IMG/VR virus record: IMGVR_UViG_3300020045_009535
Coordinates: 1-31,286 of that record
From: a virus
Lineage: Duplodnaviria; Caudoviricetes
DNA: 31,286 nucleotides
Strand: one strand, 5' to 3'
Shown here: one piece after another, positions 3,279 through 31,004 of the stretch
Layout: each line of letters opens with the position of its first letter
Numbering within the stretch: position 1 is the first letter of the stretch
Made by a program: the position numbers and the translations under genes
Notes under the pieces: model-generated
Told to the model about the DNA's origin: nothing
Seen by the model: the letters and a program-made list of their open reading frames with translations, nothing else
Databases searched by the model: none

Positions 3279-5240
3279 TTATTTTATTATTAATTCTTTA
3301 TCAGTTGTCGCAAAAGCCAAAACGCAATTCATTCCGCAAGTATTTATTGGATCGGTTGTGTTAGACTCGCAATTGTCCATCAATGTAATGCCTTTGTAAC
3401 CTTTCAGGCGTTGAAAAGTGCTCAAAACTTGCAATTTCAAATTATTTTGCAAAGCTCCGTTGCATTCATACGGGAAAACTTTCCCGTTAGCAGTGATTTT
3501 GAAACAATCTTTATACTCTCCGGTTGTAATTACAAGCTCCAATAACTGTACATCAATTTCAATGGCTCCCGAAAATTCAGATTTTACGACACCGTTCAAA
3601 TTACTGAAATAGTTTGATATTTTAGTGGTTAAAAATGCAATTTGTTCGCCAATTGTGAATAAATCTCCTTGCAACGCTTTGATTTCCTTTTCGTACTGAT
3701 CGCGAAGTTTGACGTTATTTTCGTTAACTCCGATTGCCTTGTTAACATCTACTTTGGCGAGTTTAAAAGTGGCGTGCGCTTCCTTTATTTCGTCTGAAAT
3801 TTCCAACGCTTCTGGAAGTTTTTGTATTTCAGGTTCGGCCAGTTCGGCCAGTTCGCTTTTTTTTGCCTCAACTTGCTTTTCAAACTCAATTTTCCGCGCT
3901 TCCAACTCATTTAAATCACATTTAAGTGTATCAATTTCAGTATTTTTCGTCGATTCAAAAGCATTTTTCAAGAACTCGTTATCTTTAACGGTTTTTAAAT
4001 TTGCTTCTTGCAAGTCGTTATACTCTTTTTCGGCTTTTTCAAGTTCTGATTTAGCAGCCAAATATTTCGTGTTGCATTCGTTCATTTCCTTTGTGAGAAT
4101 TGAGCGATTTTCAGACTTTAACGCTTCGATTTTTGTGTTAATTTCAGCATCAAACTTTATCATTTGCGATTTTTCAGCATGTAATTTTGATGTTTCGCAA
4201 AAAACACCAGACAACGGACAATTACTTGAATTATTATCATCAATAAAAACAAATGAAGTTTCCATTAATGATTTTATTTTTTTTGAATTTTCAACAAGCA
4301 CCGGATTAGCTGCAAAACGTTTTGCTGCGTATGATTCAATTGTTTCAAAATATTCAAGTTTTTTGAACTCATTTTCTTTTTTAGCAATGTTGTTGTTTTC
4401 TTCGTCAATATTAACTATTTCTTTAGGTATAAATTGCGAATTTTCAACGGTCGAAAGCTCTGTTTGAAGTTCAGAGATTTGATTATCTATTTTTGAAATC
4501 GATAACTCAATTTTTTGCAGCTCCTCGTTTAGCTGTTTTTTCGCGTCTAGATACTTTTGTGACGCTTCGTTATTTGCTTTGTTAATTTCAGCTACTTGTT
4601 TTGAATTGTCAACCTCTGAAAGTTTTAAAAATTCATCATTAAGTCGTGAAATTTCGGGGTCAATCGTTAATACCTCAACATCTTTAACGCCTTTTAGCTG
4701 TTCCGATTTACTTTTAACGCCGTCAATTGCATTTTTTTGAGCTTTCTTTAGTTCTTTCAATTTAAGTGATGAACTTTTAACGTCATAATCTGGCATTTTT
4801 GATTTTAACAAGTCAATAAACATAGCGCGTTGAGCGTCTTCTTTTTGATTAAAAAAATAATCAGTACCCAATTTTAGAAAATCGTTAAATTCGTCTGCAA
4901 AATCGTTACACTCGATTGTGTTTTTAAAACATTGAGTTGAGCGTTTAATTTTTAACTCTTCAATGCCCGCCCGAGAAACCGAATAGGTCGGAGTTACAAC
5001 CCGTTGAAATAAATTTCCGTAATTGTCAAAAAAAGTAACGTCCGCAATGGCTTGGTGCAAGTCTACGCGGTTGTCATATACTTGCTTAAATTCATTTCCT
5101 TGTAAATCTTTGCCTGTTAAGCAAAAACTAAACGCTTCTAAAATGGTAGTTTTGCCGATTCCGTTACCGCCTTTAATTTCGGCTGGTACTTCGATTGTTT
5201 TATTCTCAATCGTTTTATATTTGTTAATTTGTAATTTCAT
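3279..5240 (-). CDS. Rad50/SbcC/SMC-like coiled-coil ATPase
   Basis: N-terminal Walker A GGNGIGKTT, long coiled coils, central CPLSGVFC (zinc-hook-like) and C-terminal Walker B ITLMDNCES. Confidence 0.88.
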   Translation of the reverse strand: MKLQINKYKTIENKTIEVPAEIKGGNGIGKTTILEAFSFCLTGKDLQGNEFKQVYDNRVDLHQAIADVTFFDNYGNLFQRVVTPTYSVSRAGIEELKIKRSTQCFKNTIECNDFADEFNDFLKLGTDYFFNQKEDAQRAMFIDLLKSKMPDYDVKSSSLKLKELKKAQKNAIDGVKSKSEQLKGVKDVEVLTIDPEISRLNDEFLKLSEVDNSKQVAEINKANNEASQKYLDAKKQLNEELQKIELSISKIDNQISELQTELSTVENSQFIPKEIVNIDEENNNIAKKENEFKKLEYFETIESYAAKRFAANPVLVENSKKIKSLMETSFVFIDDNNSSNCPLSGVFCETSKLHAEKSQMIKFDAEINTKIEALKSENRSILTKEMNECNTKYLAAKSELEKAEKEYNDLQEANLKTVKDNEFLKNAFESTKNTEIDTLKCDLNELEARKIEFEKQVEAKKSELAELAEPEIQKLPEALEISDEIKEAHATFKLAKVDVNKAIGVNENNVKLRDQYEKEIKALQGDLFTIGEQIAFLTTKISNYFSNLNGVVKSEFSGAIEIDVQLLELVITTGEYKDCFKITANGKVFPYECNGALQNNLKLQVLSTFQRLKGYKGITLMDNCESNTTDPINTCGMNCVLAFATTDKELIIK

Positions 5241-7399: not shown

Positions 7400-7461
7400 C
7401 AAATATACAGCTTTATTTTGTAATACCAAACAATTTTACAAAATAAGTGCTTTATTTTGTA
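7400..7461 (-). promoter_or_regulatory. Early promoter copy 3 plus palindromic operator TACAAAATAA-N5-TTATTTTGTA (7437-7461)
   Basis: caaatatacagctttattttgtaataccaaacaa aligns with 1611-1644. The same palindrome occurs at 25915 and 30239. Confidence 0.75.
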
Positions 7462-9023: not shown

Positions 9024-10433
9024 TTAATCAAATGGCAGCCTTAAATCAACTTCAGGCGGAACCAAACTGGCAAACGGTGCATCTTCTCTGACTTCTATAA
9101 CTTCTTCCTCGGTATATGGCTTTCGATTTAACTTGTAAAATCGCTGCCCTTTATCGGGCTGTCCATATAATTTTATCAAAACTCTTTTAACAACCTCTCT
9201 GCTCATTTTTTTATCATTTTTTGAAATCTCGTTGAAAGCCATAACGTTTGTAATGTTAAAACTTGAAGTTGAAGTACACGCATCAATTCTTTGTCGTGAA
9301 AAAATATCCCGCAACTCTAACATTATATTATTAATTTCTCCTACCTGTGAATTTGGACGTATCACTTCGCGATAAATTTCACTTAATTTTAAAGCTGATA
9401 AATTGCACTCCAACACGAACTCATGCCACATCGATTGTATTTCTGGGAATCCTAAGTCTTCTGGTACTGTGAAATGTATTGCCAAAATTCGCCTTTCAGT
9501 TTCATCTTGCACAAAATAAATCGGGTCGACGTTCGAAGTCATTATATAATTTCGGAAACATCGCCTGGTCCGGTCACCAGTCTTATACTTAAACTCAACT
9601 TCGCAGCTATTCGACGTAATTAACTGTTTGAAATCGTCATAAACTTTTTGCATATCGAAAAATCCGCCCTCGTCAATCAATGTACATCGCGATGAAGTAG
9701 CTTTCGGAATGTCAAAGTTTTTCATCTGCATCTCCTTTTTTAACTTCGATTTATGTTGTGTCGCATCTCCGTTCGTTTCACCGTTCAAAAAACTACAGAT
9801 ATATGACGCTACAGTCGTTTTTCCTGTGAACTGTTCTTTTGACCACAAATATAAAAAAGTGTTAAGCGAAGGGTCTAAATCATCTAATTTTGTTTGGCTA
9901 CAAAAATACTGAAGGTACATTATATCGCGATCCGAAAAATTATAAGTCTTTTTAATCCTTACTGAAATTTTGCGTAGCTTATCAAGTTCCAACTCCTTTT
10001 TTATCTTAACAAATTGTGCCTGTCTTCGTTTTGGCAAAATAAGACTAAACCAAATATAAGTGCCTTTGCTTTGCGCCCAATCATTGCAACGGTCGGGGTG
10101 TTTGAAAAGTGATATATGCTGGCCGTACAATAATTTATAATCTACATCTACCTGTTTTAATAAATCATTGTTTGACAAAACCTTATCGCGAACAATTGAC
10201 CTACATATGTCAGAGAAAAAAACTTGAATATCTTCCTCACTGCTCGGCTCTACGTATTTTTCAATAAACTCAACGACATTGTTTTCGGACTCCCATGCCC
10301 TATCTCCAAAAATAATCACCTCTGGGTTCTGAGGATATTTTTTTAGATGAAAATCAATCAAAGCGTTGTCTGCCGGAAAAACCATTTTGATTGCCTCAAT
10401 TCTATCTAATTCCTTTAACTGTTCATAGTTCAT
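9024..10433 (-). CDS. VapE/VirE-like P-loop NTPase (probable replicative helicase)
   Basis: LYLWSKEQFTGKTT (Walker A), TLIDEGG (Walker B), YIMTSN and DETERRIL, as in VapE/SF3-like helicases; paired with the primase. Confidence 0.8.
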   Translation of the reverse strand: MNYEQLKELDRIEAIKMVFPADNALIDFHLKKYPQNPEVIIFGDRAWESENNVVEFIEKYVEPSSEEDIQVFFSDICRSIVRDKVLSNNDLLKQVDVDYKLLYGQHISLFKHPDRCNDWAQSKGTYIWFSLILPKRRQAQFVKIKKELELDKLRKISVRIKKTYNFSDRDIMYLQYFCSQTKLDDLDPSLNTFLYLWSKEQFTGKTTVASYICSFLNGETNGDATQHKSKLKKEMQMKNFDIPKATSSRCTLIDEGGFFDMQKVYDDFKQLITSNSCEVEFKYKTGDRTRRCFRNYIMTSNVDPIYFVQDETERRILAIHFTVPEDLGFPEIQSMWHEFVLECNLSALKLSEIYREVIRPNSQVGEINNIMLELRDIFSRQRIDACTSTSSFNITNVMAFNEISKNDKKMSREVVKRVLIKLYGQPDKGQRFYKLNRKPYTEEEVIEVREDAPFASLVPPEVDLRLPFD

Positions 10434-10587: not shown

Positions 10588-10682
10588 TTTACTCGTTGTC
10601 GATTATAAATTTTTGAATATTTTATCTATTAACTCACTGGTTTTCATAGGTTCAAAATTTTGAACTTGTACATATTATATTG

Positions 10683-11388
10683 TTAGGGTTCACTGTAAAG
10701 AAATGACCCTTGTTTGCAAATCGAGAATTTTCTCATTTATCATAGCATTGTGTTCTTCTATGTTTATAGGAATTAAAGATAAATCACGACAGCCTTTTGC
10801 GGTCGCCACAGCTTCTTTAACTGTGTAAACTCCTGCATAAGCCAAATATTCGGTATATCCGTTTGAATTTGGTCTGTAGTAATAGCCTTTTTTAATGTAG
10901 CAGTATTTTATTTTTTCGTCAGACAACATTAAATCAAGTGCTGCAATTCGTTTGCGTTCTTCTTTAATTTCGTGAATCTTCCACATTGGAAGCAATTCAT
11001 TCTCAAATTCAAACTTATCTGATTCCACAGCTCTAACTACTGGAATATTCAAATATGTAACAGGTTCGAGTGTATGCCTAATTTTATAATCATCATACTT
11101 TATATCTGATAAAATAAGTTGTTTTGCTTTTCCTAAAGAATCAGCATATACGACCTTATCTGAAAGGAAATGACCTTCGTCAATTCTGTGCGCTTCTAAT
11201 TTGAACGCTTTTTTTGCTAATTTTAATTTTTCCATAATAAAAAAAAAGATACAGCGAAACCCTAACACTACAGTATGTTTAGTAGCCCGCTTTTGTTGTT
11301 AATTGAAAGTTATTTGCCGCATTAGCGGAATTTATTTGTCGTCAGTGCGTAGCCCGCAAATGGGCTACATAATCATACTGTCTCTTCG
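10683..11388. mobile_element. Putative integron-like gene cassette (706 bp): one ORF plus attC-like site
   Basis: Starts G|TTAGGGT at 10682, complementary to ACCCTAAC at 11259, which opens an attC-like hairpin closing at G|TTATGC (11388). Confidence 0.65.
10690..11235 (-). CDS. Hypothetical protein carried on the putative cassette (181 aa)
   Basis: The ATG at 11235 is preferred because the 11268 start lies within the attC-like arm. YYRPNSNGYT..LAYAGVY..EA motif. Confidence 0.8.
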   Translation of the reverse strand: MEKLKLAKKAFKLEAHRIDEGHFLSDKVVYADSLGKAKQLILSDIKYDDYKIRHTLEPVTYLNIPVVRAVESDKFEFENELLPMWKIHEIKEERKRIAALDLMLSDEKIKYCYIKKGYYYRPNSNGYTEYLAYAGVYTVKEAVATAKGCRDLSLIPINIEEHNAMINEKILDLQTRVISLQ

Positions 11389-11394
11389 TTATGC
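11259..11394. other. attC-like imperfect palindrome (136 bp)
   Basis: ACCCTAAC-acta-CAGTATG-ttta-GTAGCCC ... GGGCTAC-ataat-CATACTG-tctcttc-GTTATGC: AAC/GTT ends, unpaired central spacer, second stem with a bulged base. Confidence 0.7.
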
Positions 11395-11493
11395 TCCCGA
11401 AGTAAAACTAATAAATGTCGCTCGCTGTCCATCATTTGTGAAAGTTCCTAAATCATGATAATAGCGACCGTTATGGTTATATTTAAAAACCAC
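11389..11493 (-). CDS. Small leaderless ORF (34 aa, GTG start)
   Basis: (M)VFKYNHNGRYYHDLGTFTNDGQRATFISFTSGA; GTG is 4 nt after TATATTTG, and the TAA stop lies within the GCATAAC attC-like box. Confidence 0.45.
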   Translation of the reverse strand: MVFKYNHNGRYYHDLGTFTNDGQRATFISFTSGA

Positions 11494-11701: not shown

Positions 11702-12031
11702 ATTTCTTTCATAGTAAGTGTTAATCCCATAGTAAAATCCGAAAAATAGCTTTTATAACTAATTGATAAACATATGAGTTAACATAAATTAACTGGACAC
11801 TATGGGATTATGGGATTCTTTTTAAAAAACTTTTATATATAGGGGTCTTTTTTCTCTGGTCTTTATCTATACTCTTTCATTTTAGTTAATAAAATAAGTA
11901 TATAAAATGGTAAATAATTACATATCAATAAATTAAGTCATTAACATTTATTAAGTTTTAATGAAAAACTGAATTTTACTATGAAAGAAATAGGGGCTAT
12001 TTCTATGGGATTGTTTACTTCGGCTATGGGA
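11702..12031. repeat. Symmetric repeat region: candidate replication origin or packaging site
   Basis: 16-bp perfect inverted repeat (11702-11717 / 11976-11991), two WATCAANNNNTTR boxes (11756-11768 minus, 11923-11935 plus), and (C)TATGGGA repeats at 11800, 11809, 12003, 12024 and inverted at 11724-11732. Confidence 0.7.
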
Positions 12032-12195: not shown

Positions 12196-13539
12196 ATGAA
12201 CGCACAGGACAGCCACATAGAAATACTTACAGGTATCGCCACAGGTTATGGCGAGGGCTACACGGCTGTCAATGGTGCGCTAGTAAAGGTTGGTGCTCGT
12301 GATATAATTGAAGCTGGTAGGAGGCTTGAGGAGCTTAGTGTGTTCAACTTTAACAACAACGATACAGAGAAGCGTTCATCGTTGGTATTATCCGTTCGAG
12401 ATTCAATTATTGACAAATACTATCGTTTTTTCAGAAGTAAAGAAAATATTTTAATACTTGAGGGTGGTTCTAGGTCAGGAAAAACAAACAACAAGTGTCG
12501 CGACCTAGTACTGGATTGTGATTTAAACGGAGCGATTTGGAATATAATTGCTCCATCGTTCAAAATGTTAAATCTAGGTTCGTTTATTGACATTAAAGAT
12601 TTTGTTGAGGAGCAAAATATTGACGTTAAATTACCAGTTAGTGCGTCAGGTCAAATTAGATTCGGGTCAGGCGGTTGTATTACTTTTGAAGTTGTAACGT
12701 CAGAAAACGAAGCGAAACGAAATAGGAAAAACGTTTATATTAACGAAGCTGACGGAATTAAAAAAGAAATTGCGCTGTTAATAATTGGTCGCGCGTCCGG
12801 ACAGATAGTAATTGACTACAACCCGACTAAAAAATTTTGGGTTGAAGACTATAAAAAGGCTGATAACGTTAACGTTCTTAGAACAACGTGGAAAGATAAC
12901 CCATTTTTATCAAAAAATCAACTCGAATGGTTCGCGAATCTTAAAAAAAATGGTGAACGCTCTGAAATTGGAAGCCCTGAACGTTATGTTTATGAGGTTT
13001 ATTATTTAGGAAAATATTCTTCGCTTGCTAAATCGGTATTTCGCGGTTCGGATTTTCAGTACTGGGATGAATTGCCGGATAGATTCGACACTATTTTTTC
13101 GTATTCCGATCCATCGCTTGGGGTTGGGGCTGACTTTTTCGCGGCCGGTCTATTCGGGATCAAAGATGGACAGGATTATTTATTAGACAGCGTTTTTTCA
13201 CAATACGAAACAGCAGAAACATATCTTAAAAAAATGCAAAGCTGGGATAAACTGCATGAATGTGAGCATTTTATTGAAACCAACGGACTTGGAAAGTTAA
13301 TTTATAACAAAATAAAGAATAATTATCAAGGCAATTTGCACTCGGTTTCAAATGCTGACAATAAAAATGGTGATATTATTCTTTATTCGCCAGAAGCAAA
13401 GCAAATTTTATATAATAAATCGGACACAACGGCAGAAATGATTAAGCAATGTGTTGCTTTTCCAGATGCAGATCACGACGATGCTCCGGACATGTTATGC
13501 CGTTCGCGAAAAATAAAAGAAAAATATTTCGCAATTTAA
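12196..13539 (+). CDS. terL: Terminase large subunit with N-terminal TerS-like extension
   Basis: LEGGSRSGKT (Walker A), VYINEA (Walker B), DYNPT, TTWKDNPFL, nuclease SDPS..GADF and FPDADHDDAPD. Confidence 0.93.
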   Translation: MNAQDSHIEILTGIATGYGEGYTAVNGALVKVGARDIIEAGRRLEELSVFNFNNNDTEKRSSLVLSVRDSIIDKYYRFFRSKENILILEGGSRSGKTNNKCRDLVLDCDLNGAIWNIIAPSFKMLNLGSFIDIKDFVEEQNIDVKLPVSASGQIRFGSGGCITFEVVTSENEAKRNRKNVYINEADGIKKEIALLIIGRASGQIVIDYNPTKKFWVEDYKKADNVNVLRTTWKDNPFLSKNQLEWFANLKKNGERSEIGSPERYVYEVYYLGKYSSLAKSVFRGSDFQYWDELPDRFDTIFSYSDPSLGVGADFFAAGLFGIKDGQDYLLDSVFSQYETAETYLKKMQSWDKLHECEHFIETNGLGKLIYNKIKNNYQGNLHSVSNADNKNGDIILYSPEAKQILYNKSDTTAEMIKQCVAFPDADHDDAPDMLCRSRKIKEKYFAI

Positions 13540-25882: not shown

Positions 25883-25886
25883 ATGT

Positions 25887-26055
25887 ATTGATAATCAAGT
25901 AGTTAGCTAATCAATTACAAAATAATCACTTTATTTTGTAATTAGTATTGTAAAAGTTAACTATTTATACGTAACTGCTTGATTATCAATATAGATATTT
26001 GAAAATAAAACCGCTGACATTTCGATATTTAGAAAAAGGCTGCACAATTGTCCAT
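25887..26055 (+). promoter_or_regulatory. Multipartite element A (169 bp)
   Basis: ATTGATAATCA-17-TTACAAAATAA-N5-TTATTTTGTAA-38-TGATTATCAATATAG...CGCTGA...ATATTTA...GCACAATTGT.CAT; aligns without gaps to the reverse complement of 30125-30293. Confidence 0.75.
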
Positions 26056-29871: not shown

Positions 29872-30116
29872 TGTTTTTCTTTTTTAAAAATAGTTATTTC
29901 TTCGTTTTGTGAATTGTGAAAATATACTTCAAAAAAAGTGAGTGTATCAAATTTAACTTTGAAGTATTCAGCACACTTTTTTTTGAGGTTGTGAATTGCA
30001 AGGCTCGTTATCTTTACGCTCATTTCATTTACATGATTTTCAGGTAGACTAATTGTAAAATCGTTATGAAAGTCGAGTTCTTTTCCCTCGAACCTTGCAG
30101 TTGTGTGTATTGTCAT
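29868..30116 (-). CDS. Hypothetical protein
   Basis: 82 aa; ATGA overlap with the endolysin; ATG 8 nt from element B. Confidence 0.7.
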   Translation of the reverse strand: MTIHTTARFEGKELDFHNDFTISLPENHVNEMSVKITSLAIHNLKKKCAEYFKVKFDTLTFFEVYFHNSQNEEITIFKKEKQ

Positions 30117-30124
30117 TTGATTTT

Positions 30125-30293
30125 ATGCACAATTGTGCGTAATTGTTTTAAATATTCAATTCTCAGCGATTCTTTGAAATTCTAGCTATATTGATAATCA
30201 GTACTTTATACCGCTTTTGTTAATCTTAACTGTATTAATTACAAAATAAAAGACTTATTTTGTAACCTTATTTGTAAGTTGTTGATTATCAAT
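30125..30293 (-). promoter_or_regulatory. Multipartite element B (inverted copy of element A)
   Basis: Same motifs at identical spacing as 25887-26055. Confidence 0.75.
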
Positions 30294-30830: not shown

Positions 30831-31004
30831 TTAACGTTTATATATGTCTGTTGGAATTAATGAAAATATTTTACTATTATCTCCAAATTCAGACAACATA
30901 TCTAAATCTTTTTCGGCTTGCTCAAAATCATTTTCTGTATATATGCGAATAGTTCCAAATCCGCTACCGTCATGGTATTTATACACTAATACTTTCGCTT
31001 TCAT
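30831..31004 (-). CDS. Hypothetical protein (57 aa; not in the ORF track)
   Basis: MKAKVLVYKYHDGSGFGTIRIYTENDFEQAEKDLDMLSEFGDNSKIFSLIPTDIYKR fits between the DUF4494 and SSB-like genes. Confidence 0.65.
   Translation of the reverse strand: MKAKVLVYKYHDGSGFGTIRIYTENDFEQAEKDLDMLSEFGDNSKIFSLIPTDIYKR

Follow-up and report, generated by a model that had tools for sequence, protein, structure and literature searches.

The window, by which we mean the whole 31,286-bp stretch of DNA analyzed here (IMGVR_UViG_3300020045_009535), is a complete phage genome that carries direct terminal repeats. Genes for replication and recombination extend leftward from ~11.5 kb (a primase-like gene at 9024-10433, a RecT-family match in the ORF at 1690-2643, and an SbcC-like gene), and the virion genes run rightward starting at 12196. 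We infer a Bacteroidota host from two observations: the hairpin model described below matches mostly that phylum, and homologues of the cargo protein were found in Tenacibaculum phages. A first-pass annotation of the sequence had proposed that an integron-like cassette sits near 11 kb in a phage that encodes no integrase. None of the 41 ORFs scanned was a tyrosine recombinase, and a profile of the array-associated recombinase family did not match the genome in six frames at E values up to 1, so this part of the proposal held. No recombinase was found in five related phage records, four of which are incomplete. The locus contains the following features.

10596..10647, minus strand: stub of a 74-aa gene beside the dock, intact in the relative L002 and internally deleted here; the position is that of the recombinase in other phages
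10667..10684, plus strand: attI-like docking site, with a TGTACATAT box, a 6-nt spacer, and a G|TT crossover between 10682 and 10683
10683..11388, plus strand: mobile cassette of 706 bp, with a TTAGGGT end, an inverted ORF, a ACCCTAAC box, and a hairpin
10690..11235, minus strand: cargo ORF of 181 aa, in the phage protein family PHROG 35347
11259..11394, plus strand (the putative top strand): attC-like hairpin, AAC-A ... C-GTT, whose 3' unpaired spacer is 3 nt longer
11389..11469, plus strand: putative remnant of a second hairpin (loop and 3' arm, 5' arm missing), read from X6/X3 and X2/X3 contigs
11470..11490, plus strand: distal G|TT and rejoining point with L002; blastn resumes at 11470, and X10 contigs match 11447-11489

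The AT-rich gap between the divergent operons holds two inverted-repeat pairs, at 11702-11740 and 11976-12012 (16 nt perfect; 18 nt at 83%), which are candidates for an origin, a packaging signal, or a regulatory element. Two intergenic elements at 25886-25990 and 30190-30293, spaced 4.3 kb, are related to each other and contain nested inverted repeats; a short hairpin at ~7413-7460 resembles them. A promoter scan, which does not cover Bacteroidota promoters, returned 14 sites versus 10.7 +/- 3.0 expected.

The cargo ORF runs on the minus strand from 11235 to 10690, and its stop codon (TGA, 10692-10690) abuts the left box. As annotated at first pass, the gene is bracketed by a 10-bp inverted repeat (TGTTAGGGTT at 10681-10690 and AACCCTAACA at 11258-11267), and the repeats, ORF, and hairpin were all confirmed in the sequence. 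The repeat continues imperfectly to ~16 nt; by itself it is not above chance, perfect 10-mer inverted repeats being common in this AT-rich genome (266 start positions in the window, with the two copies at most 1.5 kb apart). When the unit was excised in silico, the outer boxes of the resulting circle paired fully and the stop codon touched the box, as had been described; the AAC/GTT R boxes are thus complementary in the circular cassette, as in classical attC sites. Neither the circle junction nor an empty site was seen in seven contig sets of public runs. The cargo protein had no Pfam match and no PDB sequence match, and its Atlas matches were unnamed viral clusters only; an early host-interaction role would be a guess from the position of the gene. 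The small upstream ORF that had been annotated as ending at 11389 has no in-frame ATG and overlies the hairpin remnant, and it is probably not a gene.

We next consider the structure of the hairpin. Its outer stem of 8 bp pairs 11270-11277 with 11374-11381 and leaves an unpaired spacer of 3 versus 6 nt, while the 3' arm has one bulged base followed by a GTAGCCC/GGGCTAC stem. The 136-bp hairpin of the first-pass annotation stands, and its spacer of 4 versus 7 nt applies when the stem is counted as 7 bp. Folding was more stable than in shuffled sequences on both strands (plus strand, z = -3.97, 0/200 shuffles; minus strand, z = -3.41, 1/200), and the combined pattern, YAACA...CGTTR ends of which 8 or all 9 positions pair at an offset of 3 to 4 nt, had a single occurrence in the window and appeared in 7/200 shuffled sequences. 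With its 136 nt and z value of -3.97, the element falls within the classical attC description of an imperfect hairpin of 57 to 142 nt with an unpaired central spacer. It departs from the classical description of extrahelical bases on the R''-L'' arm and a near-symmetric spacer, since the bulge lies on the 3' arm. An Rfam search of the hairpin returned nothing relevant, and blastn with the hairpin found no match in phages and matches in 0/4 and 0/301 genomes.

A model trained on bacterial hairpins identified 11259-11394 as its best match in the window (24.4 bits, E = 0.004, plus strand only). The hairpin model of the family matched 43 of 121 Bacteroidota genomes versus 1 of 121 in a control phylum. 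Covariation in the family was 0.62 compared with 0.16 when shuffled, and mean column identity was 58%. Alignment A7 was fitted to the model, so that its pair counts lean toward the structure. RNAalifold gave no consensus for the top-strand alignment, and single folds were used to assign the structure manually. Pattern scans of genome contigs first returned none and then 19 matches, all of which resembled chance matches on inspection. Among the bacterial family sites, in an alignment fitted to the model, 83 of 85 have an A after AAC and a C before GTT, and in 79 of 85 the 3' spacer is longer by 3 to 4 nt.

These marks bear on the polarity of the phage hairpin. Because it has the A after AAC and the C before GTT, and because the bacteria-trained model matched the plus strand only, the plus strand is, by its sequence, the top strand. 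In most attC sites, according to Bouvier et al. 2009 (PMC2727003), a G follows the AAC of R' on the bottom strand, and the C before GTT is the same mark. The bottom strand folded better in 14 of 18 hairpins (P = 0.0016), whereas the phage hairpin folded equally on both; its bottom strand is the phage coding strand (minus). With the plus strand as top, the cassette reads as linearized in the ordinary way (TT...AAC-hairpin-G), and the inversion lies with the ORF, which runs opposite to the hairpin. The earlier view that linearization is opposite to that of classical arrays thus gives way to one of ordinary polarity with an inverted gene. Such inversion was found throughout the phage members: ORFs were antisense in 16 of 16 phage cassette intervals from five records, with 10 of the 16 starting inside the hairpin, and neither these nor the cassette here has its ORF on the attC top strand. 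Of 54 bacterial intervals examined, 48 had an ORF of at least 50 aa, and in 44 of these 48 the cassette ORF was sense. Complementary cassette ends with G|TT junctions were present in 13 of 16 intervals from phages and 36 of 54 from bacteria. Across L008, L011, L014, and L029, many cassette ORFs begin within the hairpin and so have N termini of translated hairpin sequence, which may confound gene calling and homology searches.

Next, we looked at where else the unit occurs. Copies of 10683-11388 with ~99% identity were present in public assemblies behind three other left flanks, and the left-flank breaks of these copies fell at, or at most 4 nt from, the G|TT at 10682. One contig of 1,557 nt in run X1 matches 10682-11394 with 5 substitutions and 2 gaps, with the phage absent; its left flank ends like the 3' arm of a hairpin, and its right flank is the start of another cassette. 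Both flanks in X5, a run from the same study, are as in X1. In X7 the break falls at 10682 and in X3 at 10678, and each adds a further left flank; the X7, X3, and X2 contigs come from two studies other than that of X1 and X5. The right-hand cassette end is supported by the one study that yielded X1 and X5, and the 7 bases shared there (GTTATGC) allow the right crossover to lie anywhere within 11388-11394. These contigs (X1, X5, X7, X3, and X2) show that the gene and the right-hand hairpin move together, while the sequence on the left stays with the phage.

Among homologues of the cargo gene, L007 and L008 have in common the homologous gene and its 5' hairpin (678 nt, 89%), and their neighbors differ; in L011 and L014, the common part is restricted to the stretch between GTT and AAC, and the 5' hairpin is not shared. 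Across 25 homologue loci (excluding L023, which is cut at its start, L027, which duplicates L009, and two partial matches), 6 are bracketed by complementary GTT and AAC ends, and the other 19 are ordinary phage genes that lack cassette ends. In L018, a homologue lies between two nearly identical ~55-nt hairpins (3910-3967 and 4549-4606) that were missed by the 135-position model. The first-pass annotation had placed the cassette ends at the two G|TT points and had assigned the hairpin 5' of the gene to the unit; it had also named two observations that would tell against it, namely breakpoints of relatives elsewhere than at GTT and homologues that never carry such a hairpin. The natural breakpoints were found at G|TT (the right end in one study), the hairpin travels with the gene in X1, X5, X2, and L007/L008, and brackets are present at the 6 loci just mentioned.

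We then examined which enzyme accompanies the hairpin family. At seven of 20 bacterial array regions, a recombinase lies at the head of the array; an eighth motif match at these regions was XerC and was set aside. The seven enzymes have Phage_int_SAM_4 and Phage_integrase domains, and their best score was against NF040815. Against the IntI profiles, they scored 164 to 221 bits for TIGR02249 (cutoff, 265) and 95 to 141 bits for NF011946 (cutoff, 435), in two separated stretches. In the combined coordinates of L083 and L086, ~9 residues span 52 profile positions, and two phage enzymes, at 141 and 176 bits, did not pass the IntI cutoffs either. These recombinases therefore seem to lack the IntI insertion, and the "IntI-type" recombinase invoked by the first-pass annotation is replaced by a family that scores below the IntI cutoffs. 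Bacterial recombinases (L086, L089, L090, and L083 versus L092, L098, and L100) fall into two types: one is long (346 to 378 aa) and has the same orientation as the array, and the other is short and divergent and resembles the phage enzymes.

The recombinase family was present in 40 of 121 genomes, and both it and the hairpin were present in 24 (Fisher P = 1e-4, with genome kinship ignored); 19 of the 43 hairpin-bearing genomes had no recombinase match, and 16 of the 40 recombinase-bearing genomes had no hairpin. Thirty of the 46 loci examined had the enzyme ORF and hairpins, and in all 30 the hairpins lay on one side and pointed away. A G|TT complementary to the first hairpin was found 33 to 236 nt from the enzyme gene at 17 of these 30 bacterial loci. 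For the phages, 553 recombinase loci were confirmed and 80 kept, of which 3 duplicates were dropped; 32 of the remaining 77 had hairpins, and all 77 hairpin matches were upstream of the enzyme gene on the opposite strand. At 24 of the 32, a G|TT complementary to the nearest hairpin was present, mostly 36 to 67 nt before the start codon and often preceded by TACATAT plus 4 nt. The recombinase presumably acts on these hairpins.

The G|TT at 10682 has such a box on its left. TACATAT occurs at most 16 nt before G|TT in 10 of the 24 recombinase-adjacent phage docks and at 1 of 740 GTT sites in the window, which is 10682. The spacer after the box is 6 nt here versus the usual 4 nt in phages, and the bacterial docks L090 and L161 share this longer spacing. 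Matrices of fixed spacing rank the site 113/740 and 184/741; the better ranks (2/740, with flexible spacing, and 3/741) arise from choices made after looking. The dock lies 35 nt from the ATG of the 74-aa stub, close to the distances to recombinase start codons given above. The dock-like boxes on both strands at 30835-30850 were among the best ranked in the window, and no hairpin was found near them.

Comparison with relatives, rather than motif score, carries the case for the dock. L002 (86% identity in the primase) is identical up to GTTAG at 10682-10686 and has different cassettes beyond; its insert is 1,266 bp of other cassettes, versus 788 bp here, and it rejoins the phage at the G|TT of 11470. 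In the L002 array, two cassettes have intact hairpins, and the third gene has none. In L255/L257, where the neighboring 74-aa gene is 64% identical, a third first cassette occupies the orthologous site. Five loci with this neighbor were found, of which one is L002, two are near-identical and have the dock, and two have no dock beside the gene. Searches with terminase and primase gave no further relatives, and L002 was the sole match of dock-pattern searches. By this comparison, the site on the left is an attI-like dock that is conserved and heads a small array; the "bare GTT site" of the first-pass annotation has a TACATAT box and, in two other lineages, receives other cassettes.

The 74-aa gene is intact in L002 (4621-4845), and 15 codons are left at 10596-10647 of the window. 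Eight longer homologues of it (alignment A9) have an Asn 12 to 13 codons before the shared Met and differ in sequence upstream, a pattern that would result if translation of each came out of a different cassette and crossed the same dock. A perfect 16-bp palindrome (GTTCAAAATTTTGAAC, 10650-10665) lies just left of the dock; it is kept in L002, absent in L255/L257, and a possible protein-binding site. The dock would be the remnant of a platform of recombinase plus dock whose enzyme gene was lost or replaced.

To the right of the cassette, the first-pass annotation had read an empty site. No such site is present in any relative found, and the sequence here belongs to another hairpin, of which it is the 3' part. 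In the X6 and X3 contigs, 11388-11426 lies inside another hairpin, and in the X2 and X3 contigs, 11423-11460 is present and in X3 is followed by a GTTA end; both matches were read from 30-letter loose ends. As read from these matches, 11389-11469 is a second hairpin minus its 5' arm rather than an empty target. The arm may have been lost by recombination at an internal GTT or by deletion across the 7-bp microhomology. The stretch 11470..11490 is likely the start of an old, fixed cassette. Compared with a CALIN (at least two attC sites and no integrase), the array here has one intact hairpin and one remnant; L002 has two intact hairpins.

Taken together, these results make it probable that the 706-bp unit is a cassette sitting at a conserved G|TT dock that heads a short, decayed array, likely inserted by an IntI-related recombinase acting in trans. 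Three other explanations were weighed. If the classical orientation were on the minus strand, the full hairpin would belong to the preceding cassette and the attC of the gene itself would have decayed. Indeed, GTTAGGGT and ACCCTAAC flank the gene whichever strand is read, the left site and the 5' arm of the hairpin are similar over 21 nt, and L011/L014 have the gene without the 5' hairpin. Yet the hairpin goes with the gene in X1, X5, X2, and L007/L008 as the left sequence remains with the phage, and X1 in particular largely refutes this orientation; the bases next to AAC and GTT (83/85) and the plus-only model match also mark the plus strand as top, and we consider a minus-strand orientation barely tenable.

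A one-off capture at a secondary, attG-like GTT with no dedicated dock would account for the failure of fixed-spacing matrices to single out 10682 and for the right junction inside the loop of another hairpin, and IntI uses secondary sites at low frequency (PMC2426708). It is made unlikely by the finding that three lineages each have a different first cassette at the orthologous position, by a TACATAT box that is unique among 740 window sites, and by a start-codon distance that matches recombinase-adjacent docks. Modules might instead have been exchanged through recombination at homologous sequences or microhomologies, with the RecT-family protein as one possible agent, between the conserved flank and related hairpin repeats, leaving the dock as an inactive fossil. 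The phage has a RecT match and no recombinase of its own, the arrays here and in L002 end in broken hairpins, and there is a 7-bp microhomology at 11388; against such swapping, the hairpins have little common sequence (58% mean column identity), and their junctions lie at G|TT with complementary ends in 13/16 intervals from phages and 36/54 from bacteria. We regard it as very improbable for the cassette itself, although recombination of this kind could explain the movement of whole arrays between phages.

Under the cassette-and-dock reading, the cassette would excise as a circle with crossover at G|TT, the minus (coding) strand of the hairpin would be the folded substrate, and new cassettes would enter at 10682. 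An IntI-related tyrosine recombinase of Bacteroidota or their phages would act in trans on the folded hairpin. The ORF, inverted against the hairpin, points toward the dock and lies just before the primase operon; transcription would come from the early promoter region past 11470, run leftward through the hairpin, and continue into that operon. The first-pass suggestion of a Bacteroidota cassette system that feeds genes into a phage early operon is supported. A wider proposal, which we consider evenly balanced, is that a second integron lineage, independent of IntI and with a hairpin geometry of its own, is common to Bacteroidota and their phages. In it, phages lacking a recombinase would keep live docks, borrow the enzyme of the host or of a co-infecting phage, and sample phage-specific cassettes, whose genes, often starting inside the hairpin (10/16), would be inverted so as to be read from the phage early promoter.

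Surveys report almost no integrons in Bacteroidetes (PMC9024848, as far as the available text goes) and none in Elizabethkingia (PMC11523902, likewise in part), yet the hairpin family is in 43 of 121 genomes, beside a recombinase without the IntI hallmark. Should the enzyme recombine folded single strands, this chemistry would not depend on the IntI insertion, and one route of gene uptake in the Flavobacteriaceae would gain a candidate mechanism. The locus supplies a substrate pair, namely, a short dock plus a cassette with both ends defined by breakpoints found in nature. In the literature searched, which lay outside subscription papers and bioRxiv supplements, we found no account of a recombinase-dock-hairpin system.

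Judged by its sequence features, the system is one that works like an integron cassette and differs from the classical type in attC geometry, IntI membership, and ORF orientation. The likenesses are the AAC/GTT ends, the G|TT crossover, the complementary cassette ends, the unpaired spacer, the C before the top-strand GTT, a length within 57 to 142 nt (PMC2727003), and a dock at the array head beside a tyrosine recombinase with Phage_int_SAM_4 and Phage_integrase domains. An integron in the complete sense has intI beside attI, which is not the arrangement in this recombinase-less phage genome. The spacers of attC aadA7 differ by ~1 nt (5 versus 6 nt; Table S3 of PMC9892861), compared with 3 to 4 nt in 79 of 85 family sites; the extra base is on the 3' arm here and on the R''-L'' arm in integron attC sites. 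Unlike in integrons, the ORFs of phage cassettes are inverted against the hairpin, and the recombinases score below the IntI cutoffs and seem to be without the IntI insertion. The dock here is reused by different cassettes and has a conserved box, unlike attG secondary sites. Insertion at such sites, as reportedly described by Loot et al. in 2024, can leave a cassette in a replicon without integrase.

The closest phage precedent is in Qi et al. 2023, who describe phage CALINs, with attC-like sites in virulent phages that have no integrase (PMC9892861). In the portion of that paper available, the sites are treated as IntI substrates and no separate enzyme or dock is named, whereas the locus here has a conserved dock with alternative cassettes. 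Their P12002L attC1 (30004-30060 of NC_028924) belongs to our hairpin family and has genes on the opposite strand; of the six sites assayed, it was the only one for which recombination by IntI1 was not verified, while attC2 of the same phage was verified. In our analysis, P12002L (L172, 30004-39249) has at least 6 family hairpins among a methyltransferase and neighboring genes, versus the two tested in PMC9892861, and its cassettes show the same ORF inversion as other phage cassettes. In Riemerella anatipestifer, also of the Bacteroidota, a gene with 27 bp on its 5' side and a 140-bp hairpin on its 3' side integrates without flanking homology (PMC13148043). Compared by description, the two systems are alike in that a gene and an attC-like hairpin of ~140 bp integrate as a unit; they differ in that the Riemerella unit is chromosomal, with its hairpin 3' of the gene, and in that the available part of PMC13148043 does not identify the enzyme.
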